Source of the DNA: Oscillospiraceae bacterium
Lineage (GTDB): Bacteria; Bacillota; Clostridia; Oscillospirales; Oscillospiraceae
DNA: 64,000 bases
Reading direction: 5' to 3'
NCBI GenBank assembly: GCA_017619535.1
Contig: JAFZSD010000025.1
Coordinates: 878 to 64,877 of the forward strand
The notes under the pieces are model-generated. The model made no database searches and was not told where the DNA came from. It saw only the letters and a program-made list of their open reading frames with translations. The translations under genes and the position numbers were made by a program. This document shows positions 1,651-11,181 of the stretch, piece after piece. Each line of letters starts with the position of its first letter. Positions within the stretch are counted from its first letter, which is position 1.

Positions 1651-1937
1651 GAAAATCCCTCCCCCGCAACGGTTGCACATTTGCTTGAAGAACAGAACGC
1701 AACAGGAATCCAGACTGACAAGATTGCTGTTGCGTTCTTTGTCTCCCAGGTTATGCACCCAGCAAAACCCTTTTCAGTTTGGAGTTGACTTTCTGTTTGA
1801 ATGCATAATATACCAAGGCATATTTCTGTTCGTTTTCAATTCACGATAGCTACACAAGTTAAAACGCAGAAACACACATGCTATATTATACATATTCTCT
1901 GGAATGATTATTAAACACGGAAATTCCGTTTTTAATG

Positions 1938-1966
1938 TTGACAATTAGGGTATACTATCTTATAAT
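1938..1966 (+). promoter_or_regulatory. Canonical sigma-70 type promoter for the ATPase/Toprim operon
   Basis: TTGACA (1938-1943), 17-nt spacer, TATAAT (1961-1966). The 13-bp palindrome ACGGAAATTCCGT sits just upstream. Confidence 0.65.
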
Positions 1967-2024
1967 TGCGGCAGGTGAAAGCGTTAATTACAGAAAATGT
2001 GTTATTAGCATTGGAGGTGCAGCT

Positions 2025-3218
2025 ATGATTCTCTTGAAACTGTGCGTGTCAGGATTGCCGTTATTTCAAGGCAAATGTGAAATTGACTTCATGGCCCAAC
2101 AAAGAGTAACTGAGGAAAATGCTGAACAGATGGCACGAGTTTTCTCAACTGGATTGCAGGATTTTCACAAAAATAATGTCTTGTCGTTTATTGGCATCAA
2201 TGCTTCCGGCAAAACAACCTTGCTCAAATTGATTTCTTTTTCTTTAGGTTTGCTCAACAACGAACCCATTAATACGATTGACTGCGTCGAAGTATTAGAT
2301 GGAGTAATAGAAGGCAATCAAGTAGTATTTGAATTCTATTTCTATGCTAAGAATGGGTCTACCTACCCCTTCGATGGAAATGGCGCTATTAATTTCCTCC
2401 AGACAACTATCACTCGGAGGAAAAACAAATTTGTCATCATCTATGAAACGCTAAAGTCAAAACCTGTGGACAAAACAATGCGGAAGAAGAACTTGTTCGA
2501 TTTTTCTTCCGTCGAAATCAACATGTCAAGGCAACATATTAATTCAGAGTTTTTGCTTGATGATGTCAGTATCATGGTTGCTTTTAATAAAAGGAACAAA
2601 GAAGAACTCTTATTAATTGATATGTTGCAGTATACCAATGACAACCACCTGAACATTTCCGAAGATTGTCCTCTTGAATTAATTGCTTTCTTTGATCCAA
2701 GCGTTGAATATCTGAAGTTGAAGAGCACTGACACCAATACCGATATTTGTTTGAAATTCAAGGGAAAAGAAGAGATCATCCTCAAGCAGCTATCAGAATT
2801 AAATAGATATCTCTCATCAGGTACCATCAAGGGCATTAATGTGTTTCTCAGCGCAATGAACACTTTTAAGACGGGCGGCTACCTTGTTGTTGATGAATTG
2901 GAAAACCATTTCAACCGTGAGATTGTTTCGACAATCATACGCTTTTATATGGATCCAAAAGTAAACTATAATGGTGCCACACTGGTGTTCTCCACGCATT
3001 ACCCTGAGTTGTTGGATGAATTTGAACGCAACGATAACATCTACATTGTAAGAAACAGACAGGGTATTACTGCAGAGAATCTGTCCACAATTCTTAAACG
3101 CAATGATATTAAAAAGAGCGAAGCATATCAAAGTGACTTTCTTGAGGGCACTGTGCCTGCATATGATGCCTATATAGGTTTAAAGAAATCCTTGATCCGA
3201 AACGGCAAGGAGGACTAA
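2025..3218 (+). CDS. ABC-type (AAA_15/AAA_21-like) ATPase of abortive-infection/OLD/PARIS AriA type, 397 aa
   Basis: Start ATG 2025 with GGAGGTG SD. Walker A GINASGKTT, Walker B YLVVDELE, H-loop-like VFSTHYPELL. N-terminus MILLKLCVSGLPLFQGKCEIDF is typical of this family. Strongly AT-rich compared with the core DNA. Confidence 0.75.
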   Translation: MILLKLCVSGLPLFQGKCEIDFMAQQRVTEENAEQMARVFSTGLQDFHKNNVLSFIGINASGKTTLLKLISFSLGLLNNEPINTIDCVEVLDGVIEGNQVVFEFYFYAKNGSTYPFDGNGAINFLQTTITRRKNKFVIIYETLKSKPVDKTMRKKNLFDFSSVEINMSRQHINSEFLLDDVSIMVAFNKRNKEELLLIDMLQYTNDNHLNISEDCPLELIAFFDPSVEYLKLKSTDTNTDICLKFKGKEEIILKQLSELNRYLSSGTIKGINVFLSAMNTFKTGGYLVVDELENHFNREIVSTIIRFYMDPKVNYNGATLVFSTHYPELLDEFERNDNIYIVRNRQGITAENLSTILKRNDIKKSEAYQSDFLEGTVPAYDAYIGLKKSLIRNGKED

Positions 3219-3220
3219 TC

Positions 3221-3742
3221 ATGAACCTTACCAAGTATGTTGCTTGCATTTGCGAGGGTTCAGCTGAGCGAGCCATTATCAAGCTTCTTTTGGATGAAAA
3301 CCGACTGATTTTCACTTGGGATGATCTACTTGAAGGTGAAATCCTCCGCTGCCGAAACGCTAAGAAATTTGAGGAACAGCATTTAAGAAAAGGGTTTACA
3401 GATAAAATTACCGTTTTGAGAATTCTAGATTCAAGGCGTGAGAGATTTAAACTGAGTAAAGCCTACGCCAGCAAAATTGATGTTGTGAATGTAATTACGG
3501 CGCCTGAAATTGAGATGCTCGTTATATTTGCAGAAGGAAAATACGACGAATATAAGAAGTCGAAAAAGAAGCCAAGTACATTTTGCAAAGAAGATTTAAA
3601 AATCAGCGATGTAAAAAGCATTCAATTTGTCGAGTCGTATTTTGCTGACATTGAAGTTCTTATTTCCGCCATTCGCGAATATCGGCGAGTTTCCAGCATT
3701 CAAAGAGGCGAATATGCGTTATCAGACTTATTGAACGAATAA
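3221..3742 (+). CDS. Small Toprim-like (RloB/DUF4276-like) protein, 173 aa, partner of the ATPase
   Basis: Starts 2 nt after the ATPase stop. N-terminal acidic motif VACICEGSAERAII and downstream APEIEMLVIF resemble Toprim/DUF4276 signature positions. The assignment is motif-level only. Confidence 0.5.
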   Translation: MNLTKYVACICEGSAERAIIKLLLDENRLIFTWDDLLEGEILRCRNAKKFEEQHLRKGFTDKITVLRILDSRRERFKLSKAYASKIDVVNVITAPEIEMLVIFAEGKYDEYKKSKKKPSTFCKEDLKISDVKSIQFVESYFADIEVLISAIREYRRVSSIQRGEYALSDLLNE

Positions 3743-3779
3743 CAGCATAATGGGTTTTTATAGAGGAGAAAGTGCAAAT

Positions 3780-3816: not shown

Positions 3817-4122
3817 TTATATTTCGTCTTTCTGATAATCTGTGCTGGATGCTTTCAACGTGACGAAAGCATCCAGCATGAACCCTGCTCCCAAACGGAA
3901 GCCGGTGACGAAACCGTCCAGGGTAGCCTCGCCGTTGAAGGCGGACCAGGCGTCGGCAAAGTCGAGAAAGCGCTTCTTCTCCTCGCCGGTCAGGGTATCG
4001 GCAAGAAAGTCCTCATTCTCCCGGATCGTCCGCATCGTGCGCTGCACGCCCTCGTCATCCTCAAAACCGCTGTTCTGCGGGTCGATATTGCCGTAATAGA
4101 GCTCCTCAATAAAGCTTTTCAT
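3817..4122 (-). CDS. Small acidic conserved protein, copy C (101 aa)
   Basis: MKSFIEELYYGNIDPQNSGFEDDEG... is a paralog of 1174..1473. Its C-terminal ~18 aa diverge and are encoded by a 14-bp perfect inverted repeat (3843-3878). Confidence 0.75.
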   Translation of the reverse strand: MKSFIEELYYGNIDPQNSGFEDDEGVQRTMRTIRENEDFLADTLTGEEKKRFLDFADAWSAFNGEATLDGFVTGFRLGAGFMLDAFVTLKASSTDYQKDEI

Positions 4123-4238
4123 ATCGTTTCTCCTTGTACTATTTTAGGAGAAACCCGTGCGTTTTCTGCCTGAAAACATAGATTTTTCAACGTTTTTTAC
4201 TGTGCTTGCTCACATCCGTTATTCACCGCTTGACCATT
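4123..4238 (-). repeat. Conserved leader/promoter block, copy 2
   Basis: Aligns base-for-base with 1474-1590 apart from scattered substitutions. Confidence 0.85.
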
Positions 4239-4300
4239 GGAGACTTATGACGAAATATGAGGATTTATGAAGACTTATGCGGACTTATGAGGCTTTACGT
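4239..4300. repeat. Six tandem 10-bp repeats (iteron-like), consensus GACTTATGMG
   Basis: ggagacttat gacgaaatat gaggatttat gaagacttat gcggacttat gaggctttac, in the same position relative to the leader block as 1591-1650 but with a different core (TTATG vs ATATG). Confidence 0.85.
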
Positions 4301-4400
4301 CAATCTCGCTACCGGCAAAATAATCTAATATGCATCGGCATATAATCTTGATATATTGCCGATAATGTGCTATAATAGGCAACGAAAGCGAGGGAAAGCC

Positions 4401-5297
4401 ATGTACTATCTTTCTGTTTCGGAAGCGGCAAAAAAGTGGGGAATATCTGAACGCAGCGTGCGGAACTACTGCGCACAAGGCAGAGTCGACGGGGCGATTC
4501 TGGTTGGTAAGACCTGGCGCATTCCGCAGAATGCCGAAAAGCCGGATCGACTCAACAAGCACAGTGATAAGCCGAAATCGCTTCTGGAGGTGTTGAAAGC
4601 CGAAAAGGCGGCCAAGCTCCACGGCGGTATTTATCATAAGATCCAAATCGAACTGACCTACAACTCCAACCACATCGAGGGCAGCCGGCTCACCCACGAT
4701 CAGACTCGCTATATCTTTGAGACAAACACCATCGGCATTACCGACGCCGCAGTAAAGGTGGACGATGTGGTTGAAACGGCCAATCATTTCAAATGCATCG
4801 ATATGATCATCGACAATGCCGCTTATGCCCCCAGTGAGTCGTTCATTAAGCAGCTCCACGCCGTGCTGAAAAGCGGGACTACCGATTCGCGACAGGACTG
4901 GTTTGCCGTAGGCGATTACAAAATGCTTCCCAACGAAGTTGGAGGCATGGATACCACCTCGCCGGAGTACGTCGCCGAGCGTATGAAAAAACTGCTGGCC
5001 GAGTATAACGCGGTCAAAGAGAAGTCTTTTGACGACTTGCTGGACTTTCATTACCGCTTCGAGCGGATCCACCCGTTTCAGGACGGAAACGGCAGAGTCG
5101 GGCGGTTGCTTCTCTTTAAAGAATGCCTGCGGAATAACATGGTGCCGTTTATCATCGACGAGGAACTCAAGCTGTATTACTATCGCGGCTTGAAGGAATG
5201 GGAGCACGAGCGCGGTTATCTCCGGGACACCTGCTTGACTGCGCAGGACAAGTTCAAGAAGTATCTGGATTATTTCAAGGTGCCGTATGAGGGCTGA
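4401..5297 (+). CDS. Fic family protein with N-terminal MerR/excisionase-type HTH, 298 aa
   Basis: MYYLSVSEAAKKWGISERSVRNYCAQGRV (HTH). Fic motif HPFQDGNGRVGR is present. ATG 4401 chosen within ORF 4356..5297. Confidence 0.85.
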   Translation: MYYLSVSEAAKKWGISERSVRNYCAQGRVDGAILVGKTWRIPQNAEKPDRLNKHSDKPKSLLEVLKAEKAAKLHGGIYHKIQIELTYNSNHIEGSRLTHDQTRYIFETNTIGITDAAVKVDDVVETANHFKCIDMIIDNAAYAPSESFIKQLHAVLKSGTTDSRQDWFAVGDYKMLPNEVGGMDTTSPEYVAERMKKLLAEYNAVKEKSFDDLLDFHYRFERIHPFQDGNGRVGRLLLFKECLRNNMVPFIIDEELKLYYYRGLKEWEHERGYLRDTCLTAQDKFKKYLDYFKVPYEG

Positions 5298-5312
5298 TGA
5301 GTTTCTGCTTGA

Positions 5313-6524
5313 ATGACAATAAACGCCAATAGCGTGAATTCAGAAGAAAAGGCCAATATGTATGCAGGAGAATTTGATATGGATTTCAACGATGTGATTT
5401 CATTTATTCAATCAGCCACTCCAGAGCTAAACGATTCGTATTGCTTTGTAAATGGTTCTTTGATGCGATTGGATCAAATAGAGAGTATGGGCTACCGCGA
5501 ATTTTGGATGCGCTCCAAGCTGAATATGCCGAAAAAGCTATATAAGTATTATTCAAATATAAGCAAAGAAAAGGATGGCATAGAGATTAACCATTCGCAT
5601 CAGGCACTTGAAAACAATACCGTGTTCATGCAATCACCAAGCGAATTTGATGATGTGTACGATTCCGATATACATATTGAATATGGAGATTATGAGAAGT
5701 ACCGGTTGCTTGAATACTGTCATCGCAGTCAGCTGAGTATTGAAAGCAATGCAACTTCTCAAGAACTCGGTGACAGTTTTTTGCATTGGATATTTGAGAC
5801 TTACCACCGTACACATTCATTTGACAGTTTCTTCCCAAAAAACCCAGAATCAGGGCTTGAAGAATTATCAAATTATAATTTCAGCTTAAGTCTGCAAAAC
5901 CAACTTCAGAAAGGGCTGGACTGGGGCAATGCATTGGCAAAAGTTATCAGAACGGAGTACGAGGGGTTTACTTCCCAGCTCAAGACGACATTTAGAACCG
6001 CTTGCTTCACCACGACTCCGTATTCTCAGCTTATGTGGGGCGGAGCATATGCGGATTGTCATAGAGGATTCTGCATTGAGTATACTGTTTTGCCAGAGAA
6101 TATAAACTATCAGGAAGTCTATCAAAATCTGTTTCCCATGGTTTATTGCAGAGCAAGACCAAATGTTTCTGCGCGAATCGTTGCTTATAAAGACAAACCA
6201 CTAACGGTAGAGAACCTTTGGGATATTTATTTTCATGGAGCTTTGCGGAAAAGCATAGACTGGACCTACCAGAATGAGTGGAGGTTGTTGCTTCCATTAG
6301 GGCGAGCTAAGGGGACGAATTATAACATTCTGTTCTTCCCAATAACAAAAGTCTTTCTCGGAAATAGAATGGCCCCGGAAAAGCGGGAAAAAATAATAGA
6401 GATCTGTCAGAGCAGAAATATCCCCTATGTTGGAGTTACACGAAATCCGGATTATTTTGAAATGCAAGAATGCGATGTGCAATGTGAGGATTGCCCTCAA
6501 TACAAGGTTTGTATTAAAGACTAA
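5313..6524 (+). CDS. DUF2971 family protein, 403 aa
   Basis: LYKYYS...NNTVFMQSPSEFDDVYDS, CFTTTPYSQLMWGGAYADCHRGFCIEY and YQNEWRLL match the characteristic DUF2971 motif order. AT-rich. The start could instead be ATG 5358. Confidence 0.7.
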   Translation: MTINANSVNSEEKANMYAGEFDMDFNDVISFIQSATPELNDSYCFVNGSLMRLDQIESMGYREFWMRSKLNMPKKLYKYYSNISKEKDGIEINHSHQALENNTVFMQSPSEFDDVYDSDIHIEYGDYEKYRLLEYCHRSQLSIESNATSQELGDSFLHWIFETYHRTHSFDSFFPKNPESGLEELSNYNFSLSLQNQLQKGLDWGNALAKVIRTEYEGFTSQLKTTFRTACFTTTPYSQLMWGGAYADCHRGFCIEYTVLPENINYQEVYQNLFPMVYCRARPNVSARIVAYKDKPLTVENLWDIYFHGALRKSIDWTYQNEWRLLLPLGRAKGTNYNILFFPITKVFLGNRMAPEKREKIIEICQSRNIPYVGVTRNPDYFEMQECDVQCEDCPQYKVCIKD

Positions 6525-6603
6525 AATGTAAAGACAAACTCCTCGCGAGCAAGATTCTACTATTTGAAATATCAACACTCTCAAAAATATGTTTTCCCAT
6601 TTT

Positions 6604-6639
6604 GAAACAGCAGCCGCTGAATTATGCGGCTGCTGTTTC
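6604..6639 (+). terminator. Rho-independent-type hairpin after the DUF2971 gene
   Basis: GAAACAGCAGCCGC (6604-6617) / GCGGCTGCTGTTTC (6626-6639). Confidence 0.6.
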
Positions 6640-6660
6640 TGCCTTCGCGTATATTTCAAC

Positions 6661-6750
6661 AAGAAACCCGAGCGCTTTCTGCCTAAAACCATAGATTTTG
6701 CAACGTTTTGAAAACGTGCTGGCTCAAGTGCGTTATTCACCGCTTGACCA
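6661..6750 (-). repeat. Conserved leader/promoter block, copy 3 (orphan: no downstream small gene, no iterons)
   Basis: AAGAAACCCGAGCGCTTTCTGCCTAAAACCATAGATTTTGCAACGTTTTGAAAACGTGCTGGCTCAAGTGCGTTATTCACCGCTTGACCA. Similarity ends at the first arm of the leader hairpin. Confidence 0.8.
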
Positions 6751-6754
6751 CGTT

Positions 6755-6793
6755 AGTACGCAAGCTATGATACAATAGCTTGCGTACTTTTTT
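6755..6793 (+). terminator. 14-bp stem hairpin plus T-run
   Basis: AGTACGCAAGCTAT (6755-6768) / ATAGCTTGCGTACT (6775-6788) followed by TTTTT. Confidence 0.5.
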
Positions 6794-6918
6794 GCGTATC
6801 TCCCCGGGAAAACCCTTGATACAAGGGCAAAGCGAGACAGGTGGGTGCAAATATGCATCTGCCAGTCTCGCTTTTTTGCTTTTTTCGACTTATATGCTCT
6901 AACTAGAGGTTTCTGGAC

Positions 6919-6932
6919 TTGCACCCACCCCC
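6919..6932 (+). repeat. Left copy of the 14-bp direct repeat TTGCACCCACCCCC
   Basis: Identical 14-mer at 9451-9464. Related GGGTGCA...ATCTGC motifs lie nearby on both sides (6841-6863 and 9416-9447). Confidence 0.8.
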
Positions 6933-7022
6933 TATACTTTTTGGCGTTTCTCAAGATACGCCAAAAGGTTCTCTAGAGTTATATTTTATCAAAGAACTCC
7001 TTTATATCGCATTATTCTCCCC

Positions 7023-7050
7023 TTGACAACATGGAAAAAGAGAATATAAT
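7023..7050 (+). promoter_or_regulatory. Sigma-70 type promoter for the MYG1/CCA operon
   Basis: TTGACA (7023-7028), 16-nt spacer, TATAAT (7045-7050). Confidence 0.6.
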
Positions 7051-7101
7051 AGCACCCTTTGTTCCTGACGGAAAAGGAATCTGTTCAGGTGGGTGTTGAA
7101 A

Positions 7102-7932
7102 ATGCTAGCTTTGGAAAATACCACTTCTATTTTTGTCCATGCCGGAATATTTCACGCAGATGACGCTTTTGCAGCTGCGCTGGTTATAGCTGCGGCCGGA
7201 AGAGTCATTCCTGTGGAAAGATGTTTATCGGTTCCTAAAGGCCTCCCGGATTCCATAATCATAGCGGATATTGGCCGAGGGAAATATGATCATCACCAGG
7301 ATGATGCAAAGCTCAGAGCAGACGGGAAAAAATATGCCGCCTGCGGACTCCTGTATGAAGAATTGAAGGAGCGTCTGTTCCTCACGGAAGAGGCGAGAGA
7401 GGAGTTTCGTTCCCACTTTATTCTTCCTATTGAGGATGCAGATAACGGCATTTCAAATAATCCTCTAACATGCTATATTGATGATATGAATCCCGATTGG
7501 GACAGGCCGGAGGAAAGCGACAGAAGATTTAGCGGTGCCGTAAAACTGTTCCTAAATCTAATCGAAGCTGCGCAAAGAAAAGAAAAGGCCGCTCTTCGTG
7601 CTGATCATCTTCTCTCTGACGCTTTAGCTAAAGCGGAGGGGAAAGTAGTCCTGCTGGAAAAACCAGTCCCTTGGCAGAGGAGAGTCTGCCAAACTGATAA
7701 TCTGTTTGTGATATATTATTCCCAAAGAGGTGTATGGACCGTTCAATGTGTTCCGGAAGAGCCAGATTCCTTCATTGTCCGATATCCGTTATCACCTATG
7801 GAGGAAATGGAGGGCTGCATATTCTGTCATGCCGGGCGGTTTCTTGCGGCGTTTGACTCGGAGGAACATGCCATAAATGCTGCGAGGAAGCTGGTAAGAG
7901 AAAGTGAGCTGAAGACTAATGGAAATTCCTGA
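7102..7932 (+). CDS. MYG1 (UPF0160) family metal-dependent exonuclease/hydrolase, 276 aa
   Basis: VHAGIFHADDAFAAAL near the N-terminus and GKYDHHQ match the MYG1 signature. ATG 7102 is preceded by AGGTGGG. Confidence 0.75.
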   Translation: MLALENTTSIFVHAGIFHADDAFAAALVIAAAGRVIPVERCLSVPKGLPDSIIIADIGRGKYDHHQDDAKLRADGKKYAACGLLYEELKERLFLTEEAREEFRSHFILPIEDADNGISNNPLTCYIDDMNPDWDRPEESDRRFSGAVKLFLNLIEAAQRKEKAALRADHLLSDALAKAEGKVVLLEKPVPWQRRVCQTDNLFVIYYSQRGVWTVQCVPEEPDSFIVRYPLSPMEEMEGCIFCHAGRFLAAFDSEEHAINAARKLVRESELKTNGNS

Positions 7933-9298
7933 AAACAAAAATGTCGTCATGGCAAGGATGATAGCTCAAAAGGTGGCGTTGGAAGGTGGCAGGGCCTTCT
8001 ATGTCGGCGGCATTGTGCGGGATCATATACTTGGCCTGGATAATAAAGATGTGGACATTGAAATACATGGAATCACGCCGGAGAAACTTGCTGAAATACT
8101 GGAGACTTTCGGAGAGGTCACGAAAACAGGATTGAGTTTCGGCGTGTTCGGACTGAAGAAGTATGAAATCGATATTGCCATGCCCCGGAAAGAGACGGCT
8201 GTTGGCCGCGGGCACAGGGATTTTGAAATTGATGTTGACCCATTCATAGGATACGAAAAAGCCGCCTTGCGACGTGACTTCACAATGAACGCCATGATGG
8301 AAGATGTGCTAACCGGTGAGATCCTGGACTATTTCGGTGGCAGAGAAGATATGAAAAAACATCTGATTCGCCATGTGAATGATGCCACATACCGGGAGGA
8401 CGCTCTGAGAGTCCTCCGTGCTGCACAGTTTGCCGCAAGATTCCAGTTTGAGATCGCAGATGAGACACGATATGTATCACAGACTATGAATCTGGCAGAA
8501 CTTGCACCGGAGAGAATTCATGATGAATTGAATAAAGCTCTCATGAAAGCAGAGAAGCCCAGTGTTTTCTTTGATGAAATGCGGAAGATGGGGCAACTGT
8601 CCCAGTGGTTCCCGGAGATAGAAGCCCTGATTGGCGTTCCGCAAAATCCTGCGCATCATCCTGAGGGGGATGTCTGGTCTCATATGCTGATGGTGCTTGA
8701 CGCCGCTGCAGAGCTGAGAAACGATGCAAAATATCCGGAAGGCTTCATGATGTCCGCGCTCACCCACGATTTGGGAAAAGCAGTCTCTACCATTGTGGAA
8801 GAGAACAAGGTTAGCTCAATCGGACACGAAATAACCGGAGTTGCGCTTGCAAGGCAGTTTCTGAGTAGAATAAGCAACGAAAACAAACTGGCGCACTATG
8901 TTCTTAACATGGTTGAGCTTCATATGAGGCCAAACATGATGGCAAGTGACAGAGCCGGTCGAAAAGCGACTTCGAAGATGTTTGATCAGTCGGTATGCCC
9001 AGAGGATCTTCTCCTTCTTGCAAAAGCGGATTATTTTGGCAAAGGCAATGCGAAGGATTACAGCACAACCGAAGCTTTCCTTCAGGAACGCCTTTCAACC
9101 TATCGGGAGCTTATGTCGCGACCATTTGTCCAAGGGCGGGATCTGATTGAGGCAGGCATAGAACCAGGGCCAGATTTCAACGAAGCGCTGGCTTACTCGC
9201 ATAAGATGAGACTTGCGGGCGTCCCCAAAGCTGATGCTCTGGCACAGACGCTGGCCTATATCAGGAAAATGAGGCAAACACCGAGCGGGAAGATATAG
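7919..9298 (+). CDS. Class II tRNA nucleotidyltransferase (CCA-adding/poly(A) polymerase family) with C-terminal HD domain, 459 aa
   Basis: GGIVRDHILG, DVDIE, RRDFTMNA and EDALRVLRAAQFAARF head-domain motifs, plus HD motifs AHHPEGDVWSH and HDLGK. Overlaps the MYG1 gene by 14 nt. Confidence 0.85.
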   Translation: MEIPENKNVVMARMIAQKVALEGGRAFYVGGIVRDHILGLDNKDVDIEIHGITPEKLAEILETFGEVTKTGLSFGVFGLKKYEIDIAMPRKETAVGRGHRDFEIDVDPFIGYEKAALRRDFTMNAMMEDVLTGEILDYFGGREDMKKHLIRHVNDATYREDALRVLRAAQFAARFQFEIADETRYVSQTMNLAELAPERIHDELNKALMKAEKPSVFFDEMRKMGQLSQWFPEIEALIGVPQNPAHHPEGDVWSHMLMVLDAAAELRNDAKYPEGFMMSALTHDLGKAVSTIVEENKVSSIGHEITGVALARQFLSRISNENKLAHYVLNMVELHMRPNMMASDRAGRKATSKMFDQSVCPEDLLLLAKADYFGKGNAKDYSTTEAFLQERLSTYRELMSRPFVQGRDLIEAGIEPGPDFNEALAYSHKMRLAGVPKADALAQTLAYIRKMRQTPSGKI

Positions 9299-9415
9299 CA
9301 ACATCTGACACTATACCCGTTATGTGAGAAAAACATAGCCCTACCTTCACTGCCTATTATATTCAGGAAAAAAGACGACCACAACGTCCAATTGGATGTA
9401 TTCGGCAAAAAAGAA

Positions 9416-9447
9416 GGGTGCAGATGCGGTTTGCATAATCTGCACCC
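9416..9447. repeat. 10-bp stem inverted repeat next to the right direct repeat
   Basis: GGGTGCAGAT (9416-9425) / ATCTGCACCC (9438-9447). Confidence 0.7.
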
Positions 9448-9450
9448 ACT

Positions 9451-9464
9451 TTGCACCCACCCCC
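9451..9464 (+). repeat. Right copy of the 14-bp direct repeat TTGCACCCACCCCC
   Basis: Identical to 6919-6932. Confidence 0.8.
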
Positions 9465-9554: not shown

Positions 9555-10922
9555 TTATCCTGTGGGCAATGTTGTTCTCCAATCAAAGAGAAGAAATGAC
9601 ATGTAATGCGGGATCGTCAGTACTCTGTCAGAAACACAAAGGTTTGAATCCTTGATCCGGATCAATCGTGTTTCCCCGTAATGGTCAGGATTTGCCATCA
9701 CCGTTTTAGCGCTTTTTGTGTTTCCGTCGACAGCTTTGACCTCAAGGATCGTGGATTCCCCGTGATAATTGATAACAAAGTCCAGTTCCAGTCTGCTTTC
9801 TTTTGCAAAGTAGAAAAGCCTTCCTCCGCGTTTATACAGTGCATCAGCGATCAGCGATTCATAGATCACGCCTTTCCCCATTCCCAGTTTTCCGGACAGT
9901 ATTGCTTCTGTTGTTCCGTCTTCAAGCATTCCCACCAGCATGCCTATGTCTGTAGTGAATACTTTATACTTGTTTTGAATTACATTGACCGAAAGCGGAG
10001 TCGCCGGAACAGTCAGATTGTGAACTTTCGTGATGACACCTGCATCTTTCAGATAATCGAGCGCATCTTTCCCTGAGTCTTTTGCACCTTTGCCTGCAAT
10101 ATGTGAAACTATGAATCTCTTATTCTCTTTTCCCAAAAATGACGGTATCAGCGAAAAAGCGCTCCTGATCCTCGCAACCTCGTTTGCGTTGAAAATCGGT
10201 TTATTGTCCTTGCCCCGACGTCTTCCGAAATCATCCTGGAGATTTCTGGTGATTCTTCTGGTAATCTGGATCGTCGAGTAGATATTGTTAGTCTCCACAT
10301 AATTGCAGACCGCCTCCGGGAATCCTCCGACACACAGATACTCCCTGAACAGTGCAGTAAAAGAGTTGTGCATGGATTTTGACAAAGGTTTCTGAGTTTC
10401 AAGTGCTTCTCTGATGTAGGACACTTCCCTGTCCGTATACCCTTTAGCCCACAGGAATTCTTCGAAATCCAACGTTCTCATATCAAACTCATCTGTGCAG
10501 CCAACAGGTTTGGGTGTATCGTCAGAAACAACATAACCATTTACCCCCAAATATGAGCCTGACGCAATATAGTCGAATCTCTTATCATTTGCTACTGTTT
10601 TTAACGACAAGAGAGCCCTCGGGCATTCCTGCACCTCGTCATATATGAAGACTGTGGTTCCATATTGCAACTCTGGCAGCGGCATCTTCACGGATAACTC
10701 ACGGATGATCGTATCCACATCCAACTCGCCGTCAAACACGTCGATCAGGTCAGGTCTGTCCCAAAAGTTGAGGTAGATCACTACTTGATAATTGCTTTCA
10801 GCAAACAACCTGATTGAATGTGTTTTCCCCGATTGTCTTATGCCTCTAACCAGTGCCGGTTTATGATCATGGTCTTCTTTCCACCCCATAAGCCACTTGT
10901 CTATGTGTCTTTTTAATTCCAC
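9555..10922 (-). CDS. AAA+ ATPase with DUF4143-type C-terminal domain, 455 aa
   Basis: KPALVRGIRQSGKTH Walker A and FIYDEVQ Walker B. GTG start at 10922 is preferred (GGAGGG SD 7 nt upstream; VELKRHIDKWL...) over the ORF-track start at 10970. Confidence 0.7.
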   Translation of the reverse strand: MELKRHIDKWLMGWKEDHDHKPALVRGIRQSGKTHSIRLFAESNYQVVIYLNFWDRPDLIDVFDGELDVDTIIRELSVKMPLPELQYGTTVFIYDEVQECPRALLSLKTVANDKRFDYIASGSYLGVNGYVVSDDTPKPVGCTDEFDMRTLDFEEFLWAKGYTDREVSYIREALETQKPLSKSMHNSFTALFREYLCVGGFPEAVCNYVETNNIYSTIQITRRITRNLQDDFGRRRGKDNKPIFNANEVARIRSAFSLIPSFLGKENKRFIVSHIAGKGAKDSGKDALDYLKDAGVITKVHNLTVPATPLSVNVIQNKYKVFTTDIGMLVGMLEDGTTEAILSGKLGMGKGVIYESLIADALYKRGGRLFYFAKESRLELDFVINYHGESTILEVKAVDGNTKSAKTVMANPDHYGETRLIRIKDSNLCVSDRVLTIPHYMSFLLFDWRTTLPTG

Positions 10923-10956: not shown

Positions 10957-11012
10957 TTCGGAAAAATCAAGGCGAGTTTTAAAACATTTTCGGAAAAATC
11001 AAGGCGAGTTTT
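10957..11012. repeat. Perfect 24-bp direct repeat, two copies 32 bp apart
   Basis: TTCGGAAAAATCAAGGCGAGTTTT at 10957-10980 and 10989-11012, immediately upstream (minus sense) of the ATPase gene and at the AT-rich/GC-rich transition. Confidence 0.9.
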
Positions 11013-11065
11013 GAAAAGAAAGCGGAAACACTGACAGCAAAGTAACGAACTATGATATTGCAGAG

Positions 11066-11097
11066 AAAACCCCAGAAGTCATTTTCTGGGGTTTTTG
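11066..11097 (-). terminator. Terminator of the cob operon
   Basis: AAAACCCCAGAA / TTCTGGGGTTTT hairpin with flanking A/T runs, 85 nt past the cobQ stop. Confidence 0.7.
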
Positions 11098-11181
11098 TGT
11101 ACCGATACTCATCAGTTTTCTTTGTCGGCGGGCCTGAACTGCCGTCCCGTCCGGTGTTTTCGGGAGATATCGCTGCCGTTC

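Follow-up and report, generated by a model that had tools for sequence, protein, structure and literature searches.

A mobile MYG1 and CCA-adding enzyme gene pair in an Oscillospiraceae genomic island: a candidate unit for trimming and rebuilding tRNA 3' ends

The window analyzed here is a stretch of 64,000 nucleotides (nt) from an Oscillospiraceae bacterium (assembly GCA_017619535.1, contig JAFZSD010000025.1, positions 878-64,877 of the forward strand). It contains a pair of overlapping genes that encode a protein of the MYG1/UPF0160 family and a class II tRNA nucleotidyltransferase of the CCA-adding type with an HD phosphohydrolase domain. The second gene starts 14 nt inside the end of the first, and both are preceded by a promoter with full consensus boxes (Table 1). 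Two starts are possible for the MYG1 open reading frame (7093 and 7102); database relatives begin at the ATG at 7102, which gives a protein of 276 amino acids (aa). The promoter, the overlap and both family assignments had been proposed in the initial annotation, and all of them were confirmed in the analyses described below.

Table 1. Features of the MYG1-CCA locus and its neighborhood, in window coordinates.
Feature	Position	Strand	Remarks
Genes of an AbiLi-like AAA ATPase and a 173-aa partner	1935-3742		Partner without a family match
Genes of a helix-turn-helix (HTH)-Fic protein and a DUF2971 protein	4356-6524		PADLOC PDC-S04 (E 6e-110) and PDC-S31
Third copy of the 95-nt repeat	6655-6749	.	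Elsewhere upstream of DUF6809 genes; ends with TTGACCA
Hairpin, 14 bp, followed by a T-run (intrinsic terminator)	6755-6788	+
208-nt segment absent from locus L130	6793-7000	+	Contains the terminator hairpin 6829-6874, the left 14-mer and the hairpin 6936-6969
Terminator hairpin containing GGTGGGTGCA	6829-6874	+
Left copy of TTGCACCCACCCCC	6919-6932	+
Promoter TTGACA-16-TATAAT	7023-7050	+	12/12 consensus; kept in L130, L106, L102-L105 and L109
MYG1-CCA pair	7102-9298	+
MYG1/UPF0160 DHH-family phosphoesterase, predicted 3'-5' exoribonuclease	7102-7932	+	276 aa
Class II tRNA nucleotidyltransferase (CCA-adding type) with C-terminal HD phosphohydrolase domain	7919-9298	+	459 aa
Hairpin GGGTGCAGAT/ATCTGCACCC with minus-strand T-run	9405-9450 (terminator 9417-9450)	-	Intrinsic terminator facing the PDC-S01 gene
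Right copy of TTGCACCCACCCCC	9451-9464	+
AAA_14-DUF4143 gene	9555-10922		PDC-S01 (E 5e-111); convergent to the MYG1-CCA pair

According to the Pfam analysis, the product of the first gene belongs to the MYG1_exonuc family (PF03690, E 2.4e-27, 96.8 bits against a cutoff of 22.1), and the match extends over positions 2-316 of the 318 positions of the profile. A match was also found with the solved structure of human MYG1 (E 2.5e-15), in which the residues of the H..FH.DD (FHADDAFA), DHHQ and D.DNG motifs are aligned. Residues H13, H18, D20, D56, D63, H64, H65, D114, N115 and H243 are invariant among 23 homologues. The AlphaFold model of the protein has a predicted local distance difference test (pLDDT) score of 93.5, and the top PDB matches found for it by Foldseek, in a library without MYG1 entries, were RecJ, PggH, DhhP and NrnA (E 5e-6 to 1e-4) with low TM-scores. 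Judging from the model, the protein has a two-lobed fold of the DHH/DHHA1 type. This subfamily of MYG1 is rare, with 34 clusters among 5.8 billion.

The human and yeast MYG1 proteins are 3'-5' RNA exonucleases (PMC6582341). The window protein shares with them the PF03690 profile and the aligned DHH-type catalytic residues, but it is about 50 residues shorter (276 aa versus 327 aa), only ~25-30% identical, bacterial, and encoded in an operon with a CCA enzyme. None of the other bacterial MYG1 genes inspected adjoins cca. To our knowledge, no role has been assigned to bacterial MYG1/UPF0160 proteins. A distant, solitary MYG1 homologue (~40% identical, no CCA gene) was noted at positions 5920-7942 of locus L013, where its neighbors are an AcrVA2-like gene and TelA/VWA genes and the surroundings resemble a mobile element.

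As for the second gene, its product matches the Pfam profiles of the PolyA_pol head (PF01743, E 1.4e-18), the RNA-binding region PolyA_pol_RNAbd (PF12627, E 1.3e-08) and the HD domain (PF01966, E 3.6e-09), the last of which also matches TIGR00277 (HDIG). The best NCBIfam match was NF008137, the E. coli-type CCA addition/repair enzyme, with 227.7 bits, which is below the curated cutoff of 451. The protein misses all curated equivalog cutoffs, and its best sequence matches in the PDB are the A-adding enzymes of Aquifex. A match with the phage tRNA nucleotidyltransferase family PHROG 2244 (263.7 bits) was also found. In common with the E. coli-type enzyme, the window protein carries motifs A-E of the head, the RNA-binding region and, in its HD domain, the H..HD..D residues; unlike it, the protein belongs to a clostridial clade, is island-borne and is coupled to MYG1. 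The loop between motifs A and B is of normal length in comparison with the E. coli enzyme. In E. coli, the HD domain of the CCA enzyme has phosphatase/phosphodiesterase activity.

The catalytic motifs of the enzyme are intact. The GGxVRD, DVD, RRDFTMNA, ED..R, HHPEGD and HD.GK motifs are invariant across 21 relatives (59-91% identity), as are the head residues G30, G31, R34, D35, D44, D46, R118, R119, D120, E160, D161 and R164 and the HD-domain residues H247, H283, D284, H303, H335 and D371. The family is large (5,988 matches; 584 loci in species-representative genomes), and the window enzyme, with all motifs intact, shares 52-63% identity with CCA genes that look single-copy in many Clostridia. 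Its ancestry lies among the HD-type CCA enzymes that are widespread in this group.

The MYG1-cca synteny was then surveyed, as the initial annotation had suggested, in loci fetched from other genomes and metagenomes (designated by L and a number). An intact MYG1 gene directly upstream of the CCA gene, overlapping it by 14-20 nt, was found in 20 loci outside the window whose CCA enzyme is at least 72% identical. Three further loci (L112, L107 and L108) retain only the last ~100 nt of MYG1 and are therefore deletion derivatives; L113 and L169 have no MYG1. MYG1 was found in none of the ~150 loci with a CCA enzyme at most 63% identical, and the chromosomal surroundings of these loci vary, as is typical of a housekeeping gene across diverse Clostridia. 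The joining of MYG1 to the CCA enzyme was a single event within a small sub-clade, and most descendants still carry MYG1. No paper pairing MYG1 with CCA-adding enzymes was found in the literature.

In eight loci, a conserved protein of ~845 aa is encoded directly upstream of the module: L005 (7321-9858), L101 (2942-5467), L102 (3948-6488), L006-L009 and L012. It is 69-73% identical among the three sequences compared and has no match in Pfam or PHROG. This protein is absent from the window and is consequently not an obligatory component of the module.

Comparison of the genomic contexts indicates that the pair is mobile. The nucleotide homology between the window and its relatives is limited to the promoter and the two genes. 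In L109 and L110, a 2.34-kb unit that is 98% identical between them lies in unrelated flanks; it runs from just before the -35 box to 55 nt beyond the stop codon. One identical MYG1 protein occurs in three contexts, in one of them immediately after an IS3 transposase, and some contexts are cargo regions resembling integrative and conjugative elements, with DUF4314 and Imm70 genes and the ~845-aa protein. The base composition of the window agrees with this picture. Its GC content is 38-51% from base 1 to ~11,000 and 60% from ~11,180 onward, where a cobalamin biosynthesis operon lies on the minus strand; the module itself has 48.0% GC, between the 38-45% of other island parts and the 59.9% of the core, as stated in the initial annotation. 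A GC content of 48% in a 60% GC genome, the variable contexts and the recent movement together mark the pair as an accessory, horizontally transferred unit. It is a compact unit of ~2.3 kb with its own promoter that moves among gut and rumen Clostridia.

According to Pfam and PADLOC, the low-GC part of the window is an island of small modules with candidate defense genes on both sides of the pair. The proposed mobile, accessory character of the pair thus held, while the proposed adjacency to a PARIS/OLD-like module was overstated: an AbiL-like pair is present, but it lies 3.3 kb away, and the Fic and DUF2971 cassette is situated between them. Neither a second cca gene nor any tRNA gene was found within the window.

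A phage or plasmid origin was considered and rejected, since megablast of the island yielded no match in phage or plasmid collections and searches of viral contigs and phage records turned up no close relative. The distant MYG1 homologues seen in a Subdoligranulum record and in a faecal phage contig lack a neighboring CCA gene. In L104, an AAA_33 polynucleotide-kinase-like and HD protein and an uncharacterized 244-aa protein (347-1985 and 2534-3753) adjoin the IS3 transposase that abuts the MYG1-CCA module; these may be further RNA-repair genes.

The two genes are flanked by exact copies of the 14-mer TTGCACCCACCCCC, which occurs nowhere else in the window; a match of this length between the flanks was equalled in none of 300 shuffles. 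The 9-mer core TGCACCCAC has four copies, all in the two flanks, against 0.25 expected (0/100 shuffles reached four). The initial annotation correctly reported the 14-mers, together with GGGTGCA...ATCTGC words on both sides, and regarded the direct repeats as suggestive of site-specific insertion. In that case the 2.5-kb segment would be an inserted cassette, and TTGCACCCACCCCC a duplicated target or an attachment core. The exact flanking copies fit such an event, as do the resemblance of the motif to a tRNA 3' acceptor end (TGCACCC-A-CC) and the tRNA-Tyr repeats that bracket the same module in L106. However, the motif is absent from every relative examined. Its left copy lies within the 208 nt that the nearest relative, L130 (CCA enzyme 95% identical), lacks while keeping the sequence on both sides (window positions 6747-6792 and 7001-7101). 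A domain search found no recombinase in the segment bounded by the 14-mers, and the copies of the motif are located in or beside intrinsic terminators of the neighboring transcription units. Since the repeats are missing from the relatives and the left copy belongs to the segment absent from L130, the 14-mers are not cassette ends or a target-site duplication, and the insertion explanation is very unlikely.

The 14-bp repeats represent a short local motif of the flanking terminator regions. The GGGTGCA...ATCTGC words are parts of hairpins as well (the plus-strand and minus-strand terminators of Table 1), and the right hairpin includes one copy of TGCACCCAC at 9441-9449. Long terminal repeats were also considered and rejected, because the flank-to-flank similarity does not extend beyond the 12-14 nt motif. 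A 10-mer shared with the tRNA-His of L106 gave rise to the idea that a tRNA-His 3' end survives as a relic in the 14-mer; this 10-mer occurs elsewhere at about chance frequency, and the idea was kept as a lead only. The search for an empty site, another proposal of the initial annotation, retrieved none by exact-protein look-ups of the flanking PDC-S01, DUF2971 and CobQ proteins, which returned only the same genome arrangement or nothing; the hypothetical empty junction CTGGACTTGCACCCACCCCCCTTTGGAGG itself was not pattern-scanned.

On the plus strand, the right-flank hairpin (9417-9464) reads like a tRNA acceptor minihelix (GGGTGCA...TGCACCC, A, then a second TGCACCC-A-CC). It probably belongs to the 3' untranslated region of the CCA gene and may simply be the minus-strand terminator. 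In the left flank, the stretch 6750-6890 has a very stable structure (two hairpins with T-runs, z-score -8.3) and lies downstream of a 10/12 promoter at 6744-6771. The only Rfam match, to the alphaproteobacterial small RNA ar35, was sub-threshold (37 bits versus 45) and extended over the hairpins at 6753-6872. This stretch could represent stacked terminators, which is the reading adopted for the Rfam match, or a small RNA.

The sequence shared with L130 starts at 6747, at the end of the third copy of the 95-nt repeat, which places the true left junction at 6747-6750 (...ACCA/CGTTAG, the slash marking the junction). In L130, the CGTTAG sequence follows a tRNA 3' end (...GCAACCA/CGTTAG), and the terminator at 6755-6788 is kept there, downstream of the tRNA gene, with a compensatory G/C swap. 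Recombination does appear to have occurred at tRNA-3'-end-like sites, namely at this junction and in L106, and not at the 14-mers.

Genes of tRNAs adjoin the module, directly upstream of it, in three relatives. In L106 (CCA enzyme 91% identical), tRNA-Met, tRNA-His, tRNA-Phe and tRNA-Tyr genes are situated directly upstream; the complete tRNA-Tyr (384-471) and a 5'-truncated tRNA-Tyr (~2925-3014), identical over at least the last 28 nt, bracket the module. Such a bracket in this closest full-length relative is what integration into a tRNA gene classically leaves behind, but the two copies have no integrase gene between them. In L109, tRNA-Thr and tRNA-Leu genes were found upstream of the module, and the L130 record begins inside a tRNA 3' end directly upstream of it.

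These observations bear on a simple explanation, according to which the pair consists of ordinary spare or replacement genes of tRNA maturation (a transferred housekeeping-type cca and a general RNA exonuclease), perhaps serving the tRNA arrays of mobile elements and having no role in conflict. The similarity to the single-copy-looking clostridial CCA genes mentioned above is in line with it, as are the tRNA arrays beside both MYG1-linked and some MYG1-less CCA genes and the plain chromosomal genes in some contexts. On the other hand, the module has a very patchy distribution and its MYG1 subfamily is rare; nearly identical copies are found in different contexts, and in the window the GC content is foreign and candidate defense genes stand on both sides. 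The tight, conserved overlap with MYG1 also argues for a specific joint function. A spare-copy origin is therefore rather doubtful, and the variable contexts and foreign GC content argue against a plain housekeeping cca.

Taken together, the MYG1-CCA pair is probably an accessory unit that trims tRNA 3' ends and rebuilds their CCA; we give this interpretation a probability of roughly 0.55. MYG1 would remove extra or damaged nucleotides from tRNA 3' ends, the HD domain would remove 2',3'-cyclic or 3'-phosphate groups, and the nucleotidyltransferase would rebuild the CCA, so that the carrier may gain extra capacity for tRNA-end repair or turnover. We infer the substrate and this division of labor from the known activities of both families, from the strict coupling in the clade and from the precedent of the tRNA-extending toxin MenT3, which is counteracted by overexpression of the CCA enzyme PcnA or of RNase PH (PMC11541572). 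In addition, a role in tRNA repair has been proposed for the CCA enzymes of phages (PMC7824862). As the module is cargo of mobile and defense islands and adjoins tRNA arrays, protection against enzymes that damage or extend acceptor ends is a plausible role for it.

Several observations weigh against this interpretation. Neither protein properly matches a defense system: MYG1 has no match to any PADLOC defense model, and the CCA enzyme shows only a weak similarity to Cas3-HD (E 4e-5 or worse). Several contexts look like ordinary chromosome with metabolic genes, and the searches of phage, plasmid and viral sequences described above were negative. Since CCA is already encoded in the adjoining tRNA genes, their maturation does not require the enzyme; tRNA genes are also found near some MYG1-less CCA genes (L030, L081 and L034), which makes the tRNA link suggestive only. 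Finally, the DHH relatives of MYG1 include nanoRNases and cyclic or linear dinucleotide phosphodiesterases, which leaves room for substrates other than tRNA. The polymerase and tRNA-binding regions are retained in full in the CCA enzyme, which favors a tRNA substrate.

The last two points also bear on an anti-signalling module, in which the DHH domain of MYG1 and the HD domain would hydrolyze cyclic or linear oligonucleotide messengers of immunity. The fold matches with PggH, NrnA, DhhP and the NrN complexes with SAM-AMP agree with such a role, and DHH/HD phosphodiesterases have been proposed as phage counter-defense (PMC7824862). For this function, however, the complete and conserved CCA polymerase head and tRNA-binding region would be superfluous, and the closest family by sequence is MYG1, described as an RNA exonuclease. 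This explanation is very unlikely.

A narrower version of the acceptor-end interpretation is possible, if rather unlikely: the pair could be a dedicated immune or counter-immune device that reverses damage done to acceptor ends by nucleotidyltransferase toxins of the MenT/AbiEii type or by acceptor-stem nucleases, or that marks foreign tRNA-like RNAs with CCACCA for degradation by MYG1. The second mechanism can also be taken as a defense or surveillance system in its own right, with the CCA enzyme tagging abnormal or foreign tRNA-like RNAs (e.g., with CCACCA) and MYG1 degrading them. CCA enzymes generally are known to tag unstable tRNAs, and the module lies between PADLOC candidate defense genes. 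A parallel exists in eukaryotes, where yeast and human MYG1 restrict L-A virus (PMC10089162). However, by sequence the enzyme cannot be told apart from normal CCA enzymes, the pair has neither a sensor or regulator component nor a PADLOC match, and many contexts are outside defense islands; such a tagging system is improbable.

The favored trimming and rebuilding unit resembles several known systems in part. Phage tRNA nucleotidyltransferases of PHROG 2244, proposed as repair factors in tRNA-carrying phages, are likewise accessory and horizontally carried, sometimes beside tRNA arrays; the window enzyme differs from them in having no close relative on viral or phage records and in its pairing with MYG1, undescribed in the literature found. 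T4 Pnkp and Rnl1, which act against PrrC, as well as Pnkp/Hen1 and RtcB-Archease, similarly combine an end-healing and an end-restoring enzyme in one small conflict-linked operon. Those operons, however, heal and seal breaks of the anticodon loop with a kinase/phosphatase and a ligase, whereas the MYG1-CCA pair lacks a ligase, and its predicted site of action is the 3' acceptor end. A 3' exonuclease and a CCA enzyme also work together on acceptor ends in the turnover by RNase PH or RNase T and in the detoxification of MenT3 by PcnA and RNase PH (PMC11541572); there the enzymes are encoded by unlinked housekeeping genes, whereas here an exonuclease of a different family is coupled to the CCA enzyme on a mobile unit.

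Further observations concern the island itself. A DUF6809 gene on the minus strand and its 95-nt upstream region are repeated in the island (999-1094, 1217-1586, 3866-4236 and 6655-6749) as two full copies with 89-94% identity, one copy of the 95-nt region only, and one 3' gene fragment. TTGACCA closes each of the three copies of the 95-nt region, and the similarity stops there. A different two-gene cargo module follows each copy of the repeat, and the island therefore looks like a cassette array built by recombination there. The DUF6809 gene, the 95-nt repeat and the other island genes are absent from the loci of the relatives and are thus not part of the MYG1-CCA module. No mention of DUF6809 was found in the literature.

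Directly after the first two 95-nt repeats, 10-nt tandem repeats (GACATATGGC; GACTTATGAG five times) are located at 1595-1640 and 4241-4297; their spacing corresponds to a single helical turn of DNA, a pattern also seen where protein-binding sites form arrays, and the third 95-nt copy has no such repeats. Immediately upstream of the PDC-S01 gene, where the island ends on the right, lies a 32-nt tandem repeat (10959-11028; 2.2 copies); it is followed by a bidirectional terminator (~11070-11098) and then by the cobalamin operon. At the other end of the window, a perfect 18-nt inverted repeat, AAATAGTCAAGTACGATT / AATCGTACTTGACTATTT (191-231), and a second inverted repeat (506-549) flank a gene of 60 aa (312-494), in a layout resembling an operator with a small repressor.

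RNA and tRNA repair genes on mobile elements are already known, and what is new here is the coupling of MYG1 to a CCA gene. Because the two genes form a conserved, translationally coupled operon, tRNA 3' ends are suggested as the substrate of bacterial MYG1. If the pair does repair acceptor ends, repair of the 3' end would be added to the anticodon-loop repair systems of mobile elements, and toxins or defense systems attacking acceptor ends would be expected to be common in gut Clostridia. The module may also connect to the antiviral function reported for eukaryotic MYG1; in particular, if CCACCA-marking followed by degradation by MYG1 does take place, it would parallel, in prokaryotes, the reported antiviral role of the yeast and human proteins.

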